The notes under the pieces: generated by a model
Databases searched by the model: none
What the model was told of the DNA's origin: nothing
Seen by the model: the letters and a program-made list of their open reading frames with translations, nothing else
Source: a virus
Lineage: Duplodnaviria; Heunggongvirae; Uroviricota; Caudoviricetes
Reading direction: 5' to 3' (one strand)
Virus record (IMG/VR): IMGVR_UViG_2648501787_000010
Length of the DNA: 9,406 nucleotides
Shown: positions 1-3,541 of the stretch, piece by piece
How the letters are laid out: each line of letters begins with the position of its first letter
How positions within the stretch are numbered: the first letter of the stretch is position 1
Position numbers and translations under genes: made by a program

Positions 1-282
1 CTACCGCCGCAACCGTTCCGGCTTCTTCCACTGGTAAGTATTTTTCGCGCTCTCCCTCCGTTGTTGAGAACGGCGACGGTATGCCAGCAACTCAAGGACT
101 CTTGTTCGTATGTTGCGCATATCCACGCCGTTAAGCTCAATACCATCACGGCGCATCACCTCAGCAACAACACGCACATAATTTTCAGCGGTCACGCTGT
201 CCGGCTGTGTGGCCTGTTCGTCATGCTGCTGGCTGATTCCGACGACGCGGCGGATTAATCCCAGTAGTTCGGCTTCAGTCAT
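1..282 (-). CDS. hypothetical protein (93 aa) immediately downstream of the Nu1-like small terminase gene
   Basis: Complete ORF: ATG at 280-282, stop TAG at 1-3 (minus). GAGGG Shine-Dalgarno-like motif a few nt upstream of the ATG. Sits where lambda would have the large terminase gene, but shows no resemblance to gpA N-terminus as I recall it. No recognisable motif. Confidence 0.5.
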   Translation of the reverse strand: MTEAELLGLIRRVVGISQQHDEQATQPDSVTAENYVRVVAEVMRRDGIELNGVDMRNIRTRVLELLAYRRRSQQRRESAKNTYQWKKPERLRR

Positions 283-355: not shown

Positions 356-898
356 TTACTCGCCTTTGTTCTGTAGCAACTTCTCAGGCGCGTTTCCGGT
401 AGTTTCCATCAGGTAATCAGCCAGTATCTGTGGCAGGTTTTCGTCAAGTCTTGCACATGCGTTACATGCTTTGGCTATTTCCCTTTTTAGTTCATCCAGC
501 ATATACGGCCTTATATCGGGAAAGCGCCTTTGCATTGTGAGCGGGAGGCTGTCCATGATTGATGAAATCTGACTCGCTAGTTTTGAAATCGCGTAGATGC
601 AAAACTTTGTATCAATCACCTCGCCGCGTTCGCGCTCGTTTTTAAGTTCCTGCGCTTCCGCCTGGGCCGTCATTAATCTGATTCTTACGCGTAAAAGTTC
701 ATCATCATCAATCTCGCCTTTGTCGTTTGTAAGCTGGTTAATTGCATTGTTAACCCTATTGTCTATCACGCTAGCAACATCATAAAACGCCTCACGGCCT
801 TTACGCTCAACGGGAGTTACTCCCCACTTGTCGAACGCTGTCGCACTTACGCGGCAGCTTTGCGCCATAGTTTTTTTGTTCATCAGGTGCGATTTCAT
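356..898 (-). CDS. terminase small subunit, lambda gpNu1-like
   Basis: Translation aligns by eye along its length to lambda Nu1 as recalled from memory: N-terminal MNKK...KWGV..ERKGREAFYDVASVI versus lambda VNKK...NWQEQG..GGGKGNEVLYDSAAVI; central RLMTAQAEAQELKNERERGEVIDTKFCIYAISKLASQISSIMDSLPLTMQRRFP versus lambda RLTRAQADAQELKNARDSAEVVETAFCTFVLSRIAGEIASILDGLPLSVQRRFP. Lies directly downstream of a cos site, as in lambda. Start is ambiguous: in-frame ATGs at 898, 883 and 868 and a GTG at 910; 898 has a G-rich SD-like motif, while 883 gives the MNKK N-terminus that best matches lambda. Confidence 0.9.
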   Translation of the reverse strand: MKSHLMNKKTMAQSCRVSATAFDKWGVTPVERKGREAFYDVASVIDNRVNNAINQLTNDKGEIDDDELLRVRIRLMTAQAEAQELKNERERGEVIDTKFCIYAISKLASQISSIMDSLPLTMQRRFPDIRPYMLDELKREIAKACNACARLDENLPQILADYLMETTGNAPEKLLQNKGE

Positions 899-925
899 CA
901 ATATCCCCACTTAGTTAAGGTTTCA

Positions 926-1000
926 GGTTGGTGTGTTGGTGTTATCTTTCCCTTTTTATTCATAGAGATAGAGCGAAAAACAAAACCACCACCACCAACC
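926..1000 (-). repeat. imperfect inverted repeat between cosN and the terS start; candidate cosB-like binding elements for the small terminase
   Basis: Plus strand 926-943 GGTTGGTGTGTTGGTGTT and 984-1000 AACCACCACCACCAACC (reverse complement GGTTGGTGGTGGTGGTT) are inverted copies separated by about 40 bp of AT-rich DNA. They occupy the position of lambda cosB (R sites) but do not resemble the lambda R-site sequence as I recall it. Confidence 0.45.
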
Positions 1001-1085
1001 CGAAAAGGCTCATAAATAGCGAAAATCCGCAAGGTCGCCGCCCCGTAGCCTGCCGGATCGCCGGAAAGGACCCGCCAGCCAGAAC
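1000..1085 (-). other. lambda-type cohesive end site (cosQ/cosN); predicted 12-nt cohesive end GGGCGGCGACCT at 1032-1043 on the minus strand
   Basis: Minus-strand sequence GGGTCCTTTCCGGCGATCCGGCAGGCTACG-GGGCGGCGACCT-TGCGGATTTTCGCTATTTATGAGCCTTTTCG matches the junction of the lambda right end (...GGGTCCTTTCCGGTGATCCGACAGGTTACG) and left end (GGGCGGCGACCTCGCGGGTTTTCGCTATTTATGAAAATTTTCCGG), recalled from memory, with only scattered substitutions. Orientation and distance to the Nu1-like gene match lambda. Confidence 0.85.
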
Positions 1086-1099
1086 GGGCCCTAATTTCA

Positions 1100-1444
1100 T
1101 CAACCAATCAACTTATTGCGTCCTTTCAGGGCATTACGCCTGGCGCGTTCAATCTTGAGGCATAACGCCGCATCAGGTTTTTCGGGGGTGGGAACAAGGC
1201 AATAATTTGATGCGCGCGGAATGTTGTTAATCCACGCAACAACCTCGCTTAAATACCATGCCTTGCGCCCTTTCGTAACCTGTACGCGTTCGGGGAACTC
1301 TCCGCGAGCTTCAAGGTTTAGCAATGTGCGACGGCTAAGGGTTGTAAGCTCCACTACCTGATCCATATCAACAAGGCGCTCGCTTAAACTCATTTTGTCA
1401 TCGATATCTAATAGCTCTCGTAGCTGACTATCTCTTTCAATCAT
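1100..1444 (-). CDS. AlpA-family (MerR-like winged HTH) DNA-binding protein with C-terminal extension, 114 aa
   Basis: Core LVDMDQVVELTTLSRRTLLNLEARGEFPERVQVTKGRKAWYLSEVVAWI fits the AlpA/Xis-type pattern (HTH, then FP..V....GR.AW...EV.AWI). GAGGT SD about 6 nt upstream of the ATG at 1444, embedded in the 3' end of the gpD-like gene (9-bp gap), so it is co-transcribed with the capsid genes. Stop TGA at 1100-1102. Confidence 0.8.
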   Translation of the reverse strand: MIERDSQLRELLDIDDKMSLSERLVDMDQVVELTTLSRRTLLNLEARGEFPERVQVTKGRKAWYLSEVVAWINNIPRASNYCLVPTPEKPDAALCLKIERARRNALKGRNKLIG

Positions 1445-1453
1445 TCTCGTACC

Positions 1454-1795
1454 TCACACACGTGCCAGCGGCTGAACAGAAATACCTGAGCCAACAAACG
1501 CAGCAACTTTTGCTGATAGTTGTGTTACAGACTCAGGCCAGTTCAGAGCATCAACATTTAAGACGCCGGTTTTATAAACCTGAGCCTGCGTTTTTGTCGC
1601 TGTATCGATTTGTACAGCGGAAACATAAACAGCTTTGCCTGCGCTCGTTCCATCCCATACCACCAGTGCACCAGTTGCATCTTCTTGCATCAGTGGCGTA
1701 AATGCAGGAATTACCCCTTTATTAGCTGAAAATATCCCCAACGTAGTAACCAGTGCTTCAGTGCCAGCCATGAGTTCAGTGTAATGAGTAGCCAT
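1454..1795 (-). CDS. head decoration protein, lambda gpD-like (113 aa)
   Basis: TPLMQEDATGALVVWDGTSAGKAV...VYKTGVLNVDALNWPESV...AAFVGSGISV aligns to lambda gpD [24 protein letters not shown]...FYKSGTFRYEDVLWPEAA...TAFAGTAISIV (from memory). Size matches gpD. Starts 9 bp after the capsid gene stop, with a G-rich SD. Confidence 0.9.
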   Translation of the reverse strand: MATHYTELMAGTEALVTTLGIFSANKGVIPAFTPLMQEDATGALVVWDGTSAGKAVYVSAVQIDTATKTQAQVYKTGVLNVDALNWPESVTQLSAKVAAFVGSGISVQPLARV

Positions 1796-1804
1796 TGCTC
1801 CCCC

Positions 1805-2845
1805 TTAACCAATGCGAACGGTAACAAAACGATTGATGCGGGCCGGTATTGGTTGCGGTGCGCTGTGCGTCTGCACATATTCAATAGCCGGATCACCTGG
1901 TACGATGTAATTTTTCGGCGCAAGTTCGGCTTTAGTCAGCCCCATTCTGATTAACTCAGGATCCTGAATGCCACCGTAGGCAACGATGCCCTGTAATGAT
2001 GTGTTGCCAAGCACCATCAAATCAGGATCAAGGAAATATTTTTCTTTGCCGTCCTCGTCGGTATAACGTCCGCTATATACCACAATAGCAACATCGCCAA
2101 CGTAACCCTTGAAGCTTACAGAATCCCCAAGATTTTTCAGGGTCGTTTCAAGAACGGAATTAGATCCCCGTCGAGTATCAAGGCAATCTTTTACTGCTTT
2201 AAAGGCGCGGTATTTTTTCCATACGTTGCGGCCCATTACGATGATATTTGTAGTACCTTCGCTGATTTCTGCGTACTCTTCGATGTCATCGTTTGGATCA
2301 AATGTTGATAAATCTCTACCGCTCCACTCCGTGCCGCCGGACTGCGTGATAATATTTTGTGGTTTTATATTCCAGTCCAGTTCATAACGTTCAATTCCAT
2401 CGCCTTCAATGATATTTTTCCCCGTTGTAACCGCCTGAACAGCAAGCCACTCAATACGCGCACGAATTGCCTGCGCTTGTCTTACTAACGCTCGCTTTAT
2501 TTTGAAACTGCGTGATGAATATGCATTGAATTGTTCAGGTGATACGCCTGGTTGACGAACGGCTATTTTATTTGGGTCGATACTACTTTTTGGCTTCATA
2601 TAGCCAGGGCGAATTACTTTTGATTCGTAGCCTTCATCGCGTGAGACTTTACTACCAACCATAGGGGAACAAAATGCAGCCATCGGGATGTCTGGATCGT
2701 CAATAATATCAAGCGCAATATCCCGCGTCTCAAATGTAACGACTCGCTTAAAAAACAGGTTTATAAATAAAGAATTAATCTGCCATTGAATATCTTCGGC
2801 ATTAACAACCTGTATTAACATGGCTGGCGAATATAAATCACTCAT
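1805..2845 (-). CDS. major capsid protein, lambda gpE family (346 aa)
   Basis: Several long blocks match lambda gpE as recalled: NIITQSGGTEWSGRDLSTFDPNDDIEEYA versus NITQSGGTEWSKRDKSTYDPTDDIEAYA; FKAVKDCLDTRRGSNSVLETTLKNLG versus FKAVKEKLDTRRGSNSELETAVKDLG; VGDVAIVVYSGRY and MVLGNT are conserved. Length is close to gpE (341 aa). AGAGG SD 5 nt upstream of the ATG at 2843-2845. Confidence 0.95.
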   Translation of the reverse strand: MSDLYSPAMLIQVVNAEDIQWQINSLFINLFFKRVVTFETRDIALDIIDDPDIPMAAFCSPMVGSKVSRDEGYESKVIRPGYMKPKSSIDPNKIAVRQPGVSPEQFNAYSSRSFKIKRALVRQAQAIRARIEWLAVQAVTTGKNIIEGDGIERYELDWNIKPQNIITQSGGTEWSGRDLSTFDPNDDIEEYAEISEGTTNIIVMGRNVWKKYRAFKAVKDCLDTRRGSNSVLETTLKNLGDSVSFKGYVGDVAIVVYSGRYTDEDGKEKYFLDPDLMVLGNTSLQGIVAYGGIQDPELIRMGLTKAELAPKNYIVPGDPAIEYVQTHSAPQPIPARINRFVTVRIG

Positions 2846-3030
2846 ATAACCTCTTAATACTTAGTAAAAGTGTCGCGTTAATTTTATCATCTGCCTTGTT
2901 TGGCATCTTTATGCATTGCTATGCAATAGTGTGCAAAGTTTCAATCTTCGTTTATTTATCCGGCGTTACGTGTCATTCTGTACAGCGTTACAAGTTCAAA
3001 GACATAAATTATTCTCTTTGGTGATGAAAG

Positions 3031-3057
3031 GGTCGGAATATTCCGGCCTTTTTTTTT
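3031..3057 (+). terminator. rho-independent terminator on the plus strand (orphan: no plus-strand gene upstream)
   Basis: GGTCGGA-ATAT-TCCGGCC hairpin (7-bp stem with one G-U pair) followed by a run of 9 T at 3049-3057. Confidence 0.55.
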
Positions 3058-3079
3058 GCGTAGTGTGACGGACTCAACT

Positions 3080-3102
3080 GATAAAAGCCGGATTGCTCCG
3101 GC
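3080..3102 (-). terminator. rho-independent terminator for the ssb-containing transcript
   Basis: On the minus strand GCCGGA-GCAA-TCCGGC hairpin followed by TTTTAT, 17 bp downstream of the SSB stop codon (3119-3121). Confidence 0.5.
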
Positions 3103-3118
3103 CTCTGTTACTCGTTGC

Positions 3119-3541
3119 TTAAAACGGTATGTTATCCCCGTACGGATCATCATTTCCCGCCTGTTGTTTTGCCCTGTTCAGTGCGTCAGTAGCCTGCCCC
3201 TGTTGACCTTTTTTGCCGCCCGGTCGCGCCGTTCTGGCACTGATTACACTGTCTGCGATAACCTGCCAGCCCTGCCGCGTTTCGCCGTTCTGGCCTGTCC
3301 ACTGGCTCACCTGCATATTACCCGCCACGCTCAGGAGTTCGCCTTTGTGGTGTTTTGCCAGTGCGTCGGCCTGTCTGCCAAACGCCAGGACAGATAACCA
3401 CATCGTCGCCGTTCCGTCATCTGCCTGGCTGCACGGCAGGGGAACCGCCATACCCGCCATCGCCATTTGTGTCCCTTTGCTGGTGGTCTTTAACTGCGGG
3501 TCAGCCACCAGCCGACCGTAAGCTGCTATCTGTGCTGTCAT
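3119..3541 (-). CDS. ssb: single-stranded DNA-binding protein (SSB-like), 140 aa, with C-terminal ...GDNIPF tail
   Basis: OB-fold pattern parallels E. coli SSB (GRLVADPQLKTT...G..MAMAGMAV versus GNLGQDPEVRYM...G.AVANITLA; W..V.AFG..A...AK...KG versus [21 protein letters not shown]), followed by a Gly/Gln-rich linker and an acidic tip ending IPF, like the DDDIPF tail of bacterial SSB. Start ATG (3539-3541) overlaps the stop of the upstream ORF by 4 bp. Confidence 0.85.
   Translation of the reverse strand: MTAQIAAYGRLVADPQLKTTSKGTQMAMAGMAVPLPCSQADDGTATMWLSVLAFGRQADALAKHHKGELLSVAGNMQVSQWTGQNGETRQGWQVIADSVISARTARPGGKKGQQGQATDALNRAKQQAGNDDPYGDNIPF

Follow-up and report, generated by a model that had tools for sequence, protein, structure and literature searches.

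We analysed a 9,406-nucleotide stretch of viral DNA (IMG/VR record IMGVR_UViG_2648501787_000010), hereafter called the window, and focused on a gene at positions 1100–1444 of its minus strand. The product of this gene, termed AlpA', is the second AlpA-type protein of the window and is encoded behind a capsid gene and a decoration gene, next to a cos site. Comparison with approximately 240 related islands revealed strict linkage of AlpA' to one capsid lineage and to an array of phased TTGCAY repeats upstream of the capsid gene, and AlpA' may be a regulator of its own operon. The features of the capsid operon and of the adjoining cos are as follows:

2901–2936, minus strand: four direct repeats with 10-bp spacing (TTGCAC, TTGCAT, ATGCAT and ATGCCA), the proposed AlpA' operator
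2881–2889, minus strand: extended −10-like element TGATAAAAT without a recognisable −35 hexamer, read from the sequence
1805–2845, minus strand: major capsid protein E', lambda gpE-like, first gene of the capsid operon (Pfam Phage_cap_E, 3.4e-41; phrog_29)
1454–1795, minus strand: head decoration protein D', lambda gpD-like, directly upstream of AlpA' (Pfam HDPD, 2.6e-16; phrog_49)
1100–1444, minus strand: AlpA', 114 amino acids (aa), last gene of the capsid operon (Pfam, PHROG and PDB matches; AlphaFold2 model; Foldseek)
1067–1073, minus strand: cosQ, GGGTCCT, 26 nucleotides (nt) after the AlpA' stop codon and the same as lambda cosQ
1032–1043, minus strand: cosN, 12-nt cohesive end GGGCGGCGACCT of the lambda type

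The original prediction, made from the sequence alone, had placed AlpA' in the capsid operon directly upstream of cos, and the layout agreed with this: the D' stop codon (1454–1456) precedes the AlpA' ATG (1444–1442) by 9 nt, and cosQ follows the gene after 26 nt. Two details were revised. The Shine-Dalgarno sequence had been located inside the decoration gene; its GAGG actually overlaps the D' stop codon. The closeness of the gene end to cosN was confirmed, with the distance corrected from 57 bp to 56 nt.

AlpA' is a member of the AlpA family. It matched Pfam Phage_AlpA PF05930 with E = 8.7e-8 and 32.4 bits (cut-off 21), residues 23–72 aligning with profile positions 2–51 of 51, and it also matched phrog_2790 (1.3e-37) and PDB entry 8C3T (5e-10), an AlpA-family protein that the Foldseek description gives as the GIsul2 excisionase. 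The expectation of a second AlpA-fold protein at 1100–1444 was therefore borne out, and that of an AlpA-type protein near the integrase gene int was likewise supported (7433–7639; Pfam, 5.6e-9). The latter is referred to below as the canonical AlpA. Since the two proteins are only 26% identical, they are old paralogues. Adjacency to int, which is typical of the AlpA family but does not define it, is absent, as int lies approximately 6.7 kb from AlpA'. A literature search on the code 8C3T returned no paper describing it, and the paper on GIsul2 contained no binding-site sequence.

The AlphaFold2 model of AlpA' had a mean predicted local distance difference test score (pLDDT) of 78, rising to approximately 90 over the core (residues 21–70). 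It predicted an N-terminal helix (residues 3–20), a winged helix-turn-helix (24–73), a linker and a basic C-terminal helix (92–106). Foldseek superposed the model on 8C3T with a target-normalised TM-score of 0.84 and a root-mean-square deviation of 1.0 over 52 columns. The other matches comprised further excisionases (RdfS and Pukovnik Xis, beside GIsul2 Xis), BldC, MerR regulators and small-terminase DNA-binding domains; because the fold is generic and MerR-like, it does not discriminate between possible functions. The N-terminal extension measures 22 aa in the window, whose allele is shorter by 13 N-terminal residues than the usual 127-aa family member with its extension of 35 aa. A C-terminal extension, predicted at roughly 50 residues, is present and comprises 42 aa beyond the Pfam domain. 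In the family alignment a motif, WINNIP, follows directly after the last helix of the domain and is invariant. Pfam and NCBIfam searches with the N- and C-terminal extensions gave no matches.

Related loci were gathered by means of the decoration proteins of both capsid lineages described below, an AlpA' profile run against genomes and metagenomes, and exact-protein look-ups. This yielded 144 AlpA' genes encoding 35 distinct proteins, which were 48–100% identical, and wherever flanking sequence was available the neighbours (the decoration gene and cos) were constant in all 144 loci. The ratio of nonsynonymous to synonymous substitution rates (dN/dS) was approximately 0.15 overall and approximately 0.06–0.1 in the helix-turn-helix. 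The latter was the most constrained region, with a mean pairwise identity of 0.90 and a dN of 0.05–0.08 across genera, and the N-terminal extension was the least constrained. The dN/dS shows purifying selection, and with this ratio and 35 distinct proteins, the open reading frame (ORF) at 1100–1444 is not a chance ORF. The segment from decoration gene through AlpA' to cos was present in at least 340 of 5426 complete E. coli genomes, and homologues of AlpA' were found in Enterobacter, Citrobacter, Salmonella, Klebsiella, Kosakonia, Kluyvera, Cedecea, Scandinavium and other genera. A GTDB scan with the single AlpA' protein confirmed nothing; rerun with an alignment, it returned four true loci and one distant AlpA adjacent to an integrase.

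The capsid modules fell into two lineages. Among loci with enough upstream flank, 90 were of the window type, with capsid proteins 71–100% identical to that of the window, and 76 were of the type of EcCICFT073, with capsid proteins approximately 55% identical to it. The gene behind the decoration gene was AlpA' in 90/90 window-type loci and in 0/76 EcCICFT073-type loci; in the latter, the place was taken by a homologue of c1501 in 71 loci and was empty in five. In approximately 50 more window-type loci from metagenomes, AlpA' stood behind the decoration gene wherever the flank existed. In three loci (L045, L049 and L051), an AlpA' allele ending in KLIC is followed, in place of cos, by what we take to be the start of a homologue of lambda tail-assembly protein I. 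Either the capture of a block of tail genes or a further junction with a helper prophage may account for this.

AlpA' varied independently of the other modules of these islands. The island EC93, inserted in a helper portal gene, and the island L003, inserted in a helper capsid gene E, carry AlpA' and capsid proteins that are each 99% identical, whereas their canonical AlpA proteins are 65%, their primases 45% and their small terminases (TerS) 41% identical. In the only pair for which integrases were compared, the window and EC93, the integrases are 26% and the AlpA' proteins 76% identical. Because AlpA' and the capsid protein stay alike while canonical AlpA, primase and TerS diverge, AlpA' belongs to the capsid module and not to the integration, replication or packaging modules.

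The capsid promoter region contained a further feature that accompanied AlpA'. Every locus bearing AlpA' has three to four TTGCAY repeats at an exact 10-bp spacing upstream of the capsid gene, with TTATAC, TCGCAT and ATGCAT as variants. The array was found in 90/90 window-type loci and in 0/76 capsid promoters of the EcCICFT073 type (c1501 type). It was also present in approximately 45 metagenome loci with flank upstream of the capsid gene, scoring 16–18 of 18, and, together with AlpA', in genomes of Kosakonia, Superficieibacter, Kluyvera and Cedecea; overall it spans approximately eight genera. A triple array matched once in the window (0.05 expected) and not at all in the lambda genome or in 45 kb of CFT073 that includes a lambdoid prophage, and a TTGCAY pair was found in 0/50 distinct cos regions downstream of AlpA'. 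The intergenic DNA around the array could not be aligned between genera, which indicates selection on the array. AlpA' is the only predicted DNA-binding protein found with the array everywhere; across the array-bearing islands, canonical AlpA proteins are 23–37% identical between groups and primases 37–45%. For these reasons we rejected replication iterons (the array is retained while the primases drop to such identities) and a site for canonical AlpA, the more so as the window's own alpA has different upstream repeats, GTGAGTAC twice. A sigma-54 promoter was rejected by inspection, as TTGCAC-N4-TTGCAT has TG in place of GG and a spacing one base short of TGGCAC-N5-TTGC. A perfect TTGCAT-N4-TTGCAT also occurs within the decoration gene (1675–1690, plus strand), where the other strand encodes MQEDA; since this peptide is not conserved in distant relatives, the pair was taken as chance.

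The possible promoter element TGATAAAAT lies 14 nt downstream of the last repeat, with 36 nt between it and the capsid ATG. Most relatives also have TGnTAnnAT, or else a −10-like hexamer of related sequence that lacks the TG, and its distance from the array is either conserved or shorter by one helical turn. The shorter distance is that of the main E. coli allele group, and E. coli variants in which approximately 8–10 bp between array and −10-like element are missing keep the helical phase. Further upstream, a sense-strand terminator follows ssb (3083–3106, minus strand; GCCGGAGCAATCCGGC and then TTTTAT), and the capsid operon therefore needs a promoter of its own. A second hairpin, GGTCGGAATATTCCGGCC (3026–3062, plus strand), has a T run on the plus strand only and is so oriented as to stop antisense transcription from the capsid promoter region, judging from its sequence. 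The arrangement of an A run plus a hairpin recurs in EC93, Kluyvera and Cedecea. In EcCICFT073 (L002, 1–700), the capsid module is preceded by a gene for a PerC-family regulator, by two sense terminators and by a promoter close to the sigma-70 consensus (TTGCTC-N16-TATAAT), which has the inverted repeat ATTGC-N7-GCAAT. The EcCICFT073 lineage therefore seems to use a regulatory solution other than AlpA' and TTGCAY repeats.

On this basis we propose, with a confidence approaching an even chance, that AlpA' acts as the own transcription factor of the capsid module (promoter, E', D' and AlpA'), that it binds the array and that it is likely autoregulatory. Late-gene control, which the original prediction had offered as one option, thereby gains circumstantial support from the 100% co-occurrence of AlpA' with the phased array in the promoter region of its own operon. 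The nearly invariant winged helix-turn-helix would bind head-to-tail on the three to four repeats, one helical turn apart; with the −10 element assigned by eye, these would span positions of about −28 to −70 and immediately precede the extended −10-like element, for which there is no −35 hexamer. Head-to-tail binding of phased direct repeats is known for lambda Xis and BldC, and filament formation for RdfS. From the array, AlpA' would most likely activate RNA polymerase, negative autoregulation being the less likely variant. As the last gene of its own operon, it would set up positive feedback once read-through or basal transcription has started, and the flanking N- and C-terminal helices might serve oligomerisation or polymerase contact. 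The closeness of AlpA' to cos would reflect no more than its place at the end of the late operon. Binding of the array by AlpA', the sign of the regulation and the position of the promoter are what we infer from the sequences compared here.

A more specific form of the proposal, which we consider possible but doubtful, is that AlpA' is a satellite late-gene switch equivalent in function to P4 Delta but unrelated to it in having an excisionase-type fold. Polymerised head-to-tail on the array, it would lock the capsid-decoration operon in the ON state through positive feedback, with WINNIP and the basic C-terminal helix contacting RNA polymerase. The data also leave some room for a bolder variant, in which AlpA' would in addition mark the cosQ-proximal end of the island DNA and so couple capsid expression to packaging.

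Several points weigh against regulation of the capsid operon by AlpA'. The connection between AlpA' and the array consists of co-occurrence and conservation, and the co-occurrence is that of one lineage against its sister, which is strong as conservation and weak as independent association. The −10 element was assigned by eye. If the last gene of an operon encodes the activator of that operon, some further trigger is needed. The lambdoid protein CII recognises TTGC-N6-TTGC, so that a helper protein could bind the array. Furthermore, deletion of the capsid or decoration gene of EcCICFT073 has no transfer phenotype (PMC6092414), which makes the pay-off of regulating the module unclear.

The rest of the window provides the setting in which the alternatives are to be judged. 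Its real genes, identified from the ORF list and Pfam and PHROG profile searches, are all on the minus strand. Beyond the capsid operon, it contains the following:

8165–9406, minus strand: integrase
7433–7639, minus strand: canonical integrase-proximal AlpA, 68 aa
4105–5859, minus strand: D5-type primase
3119–3541, minus strand: SSB
921–1005, minus strand: island-type cosB with inverted repeats TTTCGGGTTGGTG and CACCAACCTGAAA, arms at 993–1005 and 921–933
356–898, minus strand: small terminase TerS', Nu1-like, 180 aa from the RefSeq ATG (Pfam Phage_Nu1, 9.3e-24; phrog_57, 3.6e-53)
1–282, minus strand: conserved ORF, 93 aa

The window has the composition of a Gram-negative phage-inducible chromosomal island (PICI) of the EcCICFT073 type: int, alpA and the primase gene are co-oriented, cos is of the lambda type, the length is approximately 10 kb, and lysis and tail genes are absent. 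The late region of EcCICFT073 runs from the capsid gene c1499 through the decoration gene c1500, a gene of 137 aa (presumably c1501) and cos to RppA (c1503) and a 93-aa ORF. The late region of the window is laid out in the same way, which identifies the window as an EcCICFT073-family satellite of lambdoid phages. The canonical AlpA is presumed to be the master activator of the island by analogy with experiments on EcCICFT073 (PMC6092414). Upstream of its gene by approximately 70–100 nt, GTGAGTAC occurs twice, 20 bp apart, within the near-palindrome AACAGTGAGTACCGTTTTAAAACGGTGAGTACTGTT (7711–7738, minus strand). These repeats are a candidate operator for canonical AlpA or for a helper-derived inducer and are unrelated to the TTGCAY array.

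A 97%-identical element is located in E. coli MEW beside tRNA-Pro, between yejM and yejO. TerS' is annotated by RefSeq in this near-identical island. A 69-aa ORF at 898–1107 (minus strand), a RefSeq hypothetical protein in the MEW island, covers cosQ, cosN and cosB and is probably not a gene. A mechanical ORF of 346 aa at 6388–7428 (minus strand) has no matching RefSeq annotation; RefSeq gives Icd-like genes (one a pseudogene) in that region, with a YlcI/YnfO gene on the plus strand. The copy of the island in the window likewise lies beside tRNA-Pro, unlike relatives such as L003–L007 and L011, which are inserted within the late genes of lambdoid prophages. Just past those islands, approximately 2 kb after AlpA', stand a 254-aa C-terminal remnant of the helper capsid gene E and then FI, FII, Z, U and V, and the EC93 island splits the helper portal gene (L092, 1–657 and 11542–12375). 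Such helper-embedded PICIs, with a four-zone organisation and islands in helper late genes, were already described in 2023 (PMC10111431).

The cos region of the window is nearly identical to that of lambda from cosQ to just past cosN, and cosN is flanked by GCTACG and, on the opposite side, by TTGCGGATTTTCGCTATTTATGA, as in lambda. The position of cosQ at +26 after the AlpA' stop codon recurs in nearly all E. coli relatives. At least five cohesive ends (GGGCGGCGACCT, GGGCGTCAGGCG, GGGCGGAAGGCG, GGGCGGCAGACG and GGGCGGCTGACG; L003–L090 and the window) were found behind an identical cosQ and left half of cosN. Because the cohesive ends vary behind an identical cosQ, the breakpoints are at cosN, which looks like a site of recombination between the capsid and packaging cassettes. 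Downstream of it, two unrelated types of cosB occur among the relatives, the island type and another that is nearly identical to R3-I1-R2-R1 of lambda. Between cosN and the terS' start, the island type has a 13-nt inverted repeat, TTTCRGGTTGGTG (TTTCAGGTTGGTG and CACCAACCCGAAA on the plus strand), which was kept wherever island-type TerS' occurs, including the c1501-type loci; the inverted repeats are probably binding sites of TerS'. An Rfam scan of the window gave nothing relevant, only sub-threshold miRNA models on the cosB inverted repeat, where the region can form a hairpin. A GGGCCCG-N10-CGGGUCC hairpin that would use cosQ as a terminator or structure was rejected, as its RNA fold was no better than that of shuffled sequences (z = −0.64). 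Clean intrinsic terminators follow the slot gene in Cedecea, in the locus L008 and in all c1501-type islands.

These comparisons bear on the role that the original prediction had put foremost, namely a role at cos such as helping to redirect terminase to the island cos. As a packaging accessory, AlpA' would bind near cosQ/cosN or to the small terminase, would direct the helper TerL/TerS or TerS' to the island cos, or would modulate the terminal cos cut. The position of the gene at a nearly constant 26 nt before cosQ in E. coli relatives, the invariable inheritance of the left side of cos with AlpA', the co-expression with abundant late proteins and the winged-helix fold, which is common to the DNA-binding domains of cos-phage small terminases (Foldseek; PMC9026076), are consistent with such a role. 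However, window-type TerS' with the same island-type cosB followed AlpA' in 59 loci and c1501 in 38 (TerS' 85–100% identical), so that the whole cosQ-cosN-cosB-TerS' module occurs without AlpA'. Conversely, in 31/90 loci AlpA' was followed by lambda-type cosB and Nu1 (36% identical to the TerS' of the window) or by no TerS hit. AlpA' thus pairs freely with island-type TerS', with lambda-type Nu1/cosB or with neither, AlpA' alleles did not co-vary with TerS alleles, and EC93 and L003 combine 99% identical AlpA' with only 41% identical TerS. A cofactor of TerS' or cos is expected to accompany and co-vary with its partner, and neither holds for AlpA'. The spacer from the AlpA' stop codon to cosQ is conserved within E. 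coli, is different in Kosakonia, Superficieibacter and Kluyvera and is a plain terminator in Cedecea and L008; a helix-turn-helix that stays constant while this spacer changes argues against binding there. AlpA' also lacks sequence similarity to TerS' and RppA: it did not match Phage_Nu1 (PF07471), its hhalign probability with the TerS' of the window was 0.5%, and neither BLASTP nor hhalign with the AlpA' profile detected similarity to RppA. Homology of AlpA' to the EcCICFT073 slot gene, presumed c1501, or of TerS' to RppA, was rejected for lack of similarity. In addition, cosB carries inverted repeats of its own that suit TerS'. On all these grounds we regard a role at cos as improbable. The pattern indicates instead that the late region is assembled from two cassettes that recombine freely, one being the capsid module together with its regulator and the other a cos-terminase module.

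Regulation by AlpA' could also be mistaken on the side of the array or on that of the protein. If a helper or host factor, most plausibly lambdoid CII, binds the array, AlpA' does something else. The first two repeats fit the CII consensus exactly, and an early protein of the helper would be a natural timing cue for a satellite; but the arrays have three to four repeats in which positions 5–6 (AY) are also conserved, and the TTATAC variants inside them, which replace TTGC altogether in Scandinavium, strike the very core that CII needs. The repeats start near −33, −43 and −53 against about −29 and −39 for the CII sites of pRE (both figures inferred), CII signals lysogeny and would be an odd cue for making capsids, and the perfect linkage of the array to AlpA' would be left as coincidence. 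We consider this explanation unlikely. It is rather unlikely, in our estimate, that the target of AlpA' is the helper prophage, where it would substitute for the excisionase or regulate helper genes in the manner reported for alpA_1 of EcCIMP1. For that role speak the second AlpA of EcCIMP1 itself, which is dispensable for the island and partly replaces the helper Xis (PMC11773190), the location of many island relatives inside helper prophages (PMC10111431) and the fact that the closest solved relative of AlpA' is an excisionase. Nevertheless, the product of alpA_1 is short and Xis-like and not extended, and its gene stands at the end of the island on the opposite strand, not in a capsid operon. 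This product resembles the helper Xis, whereas tblastn of AlpA' against 50,697 phage records returned no match. Neither lambda nor the prophage DNA next to the islands examined contained a TTGCAY array, and the strict linkage of AlpA' to the capsid lineage would remain unexplained. The family and the GIsul2 match might also suggest a recombination directionality factor, i.e., an excisionase, for the integrase of its own island, which we judge very improbable. It is canonical AlpA that adjoins int, AlpA' being approximately 6.7 kb away, and AlpA' was not co-inherited with a cognate integrase and attachment site (att). The original prediction had set aside classic excision control, and this is supported: copies of AlpA' are 99% identical at different integration sites (portal-gene and capsid-gene islands) and still 76% identical where the integrases are 26% identical, and the EcCICFT073 lineage excises without any AlpA' (PMC6092414).

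The capsid-decoration-AlpA' module is present in at least 6% of complete E. coli genomes and in many other Enterobacteriaceae. With a dedicated regulator and a clear candidate operator, the timing and the purpose of capsid and decoration gene expression in PICIs would become directly accessible to experiment. If the late-gene switch is true, PICI capsid genes that have shown no phenotype would be deliberately regulated and functional. The comparison also corrects the idea that any DNA-binding protein adjacent to cos is a packaging factor, which is attractive but unsupported here.

Among known systems, the RppA–C proteins are likewise small, island-encoded winged-helix proteins with C-terminal helices whose genes adjoin cos (PMC6739421, PMC9026076). 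Earlier work attributes packaging to Rpp, whose gene is downstream of cos (Fillol-Salom et al. 2019, PMC6739421; Murialdo & Feiss 2022, PMC9026076). However, Rpp (redirecting phage packaging) binds the helper TerS and blocks packaging of the helper, and rpp lies downstream of cos in the position of terS, a slot that the Nu1-like TerS' fills in the window; AlpA' is encoded upstream and shows no similarity to RppA. A PICI with two AlpA-family genes doing different jobs has a precedent in EcCIMP1, where alpA_1 is dispensable for excision and transfer of the island and helper excision is its proposed function (PMC11773190). EcCIMP1 differs in having no capsid or terminase genes, and its alpA_1 stands on the opposite strand at the far end and resembles the helper Xis. 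Typical E. coli PICIs encode a single AlpA (PMC11773190), and the papers that we found do not discuss a late-zone AlpA paralogue or a TTGCAY array; a widespread second AlpA paralogue appears to have gone undiscussed so far. In EcCICFT073, an insertion in the presumed gene of the corresponding slot, c1501::tetA, was used as a marker, and the island still transfers (Fillol-Salom et al. 2018, PMC6092414).

The fold of AlpA' is that of Xis, RdfS and BldC (Foldseek), and the binding of direct repeats by Xis and BldC fits an array phased at 10 bp. Xis and RdfS act in recombination and BldC in developmental regulation, and the extensions of AlpA' have no counterpart there. P4 Delta and P2 Ogr offer a working analogy only, that of a satellite-encoded activator of the satellite's late or morphogenetic operon. 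Delta and Ogr have zinc fingers, recognise a TGT-N12-ACA dyad and show no homology to AlpA', and nothing suggests that AlpA' trans-activates helper genes. The integrase-proximal AlpA proteins differ from AlpA', which ends a capsid operon, carries N-terminal (22–35 aa) and C-terminal (42 aa, with WINNIP) extensions, and has three to four TTGCAY repeats as its candidate operator in place of the unrelated GTGAGTAC repeats upstream of canonical alpA. A parallel in regulatory logic is the AlpA of EcCICFT073, which has the Pfam family, the winged helix-turn-helix fold and the island type in common with AlpA'. It is a transcription activator of its own promoter (Fillol-Salom et al. 2018, PMC6092414), and this is the same logic of self-activation as that proposed for AlpA'.

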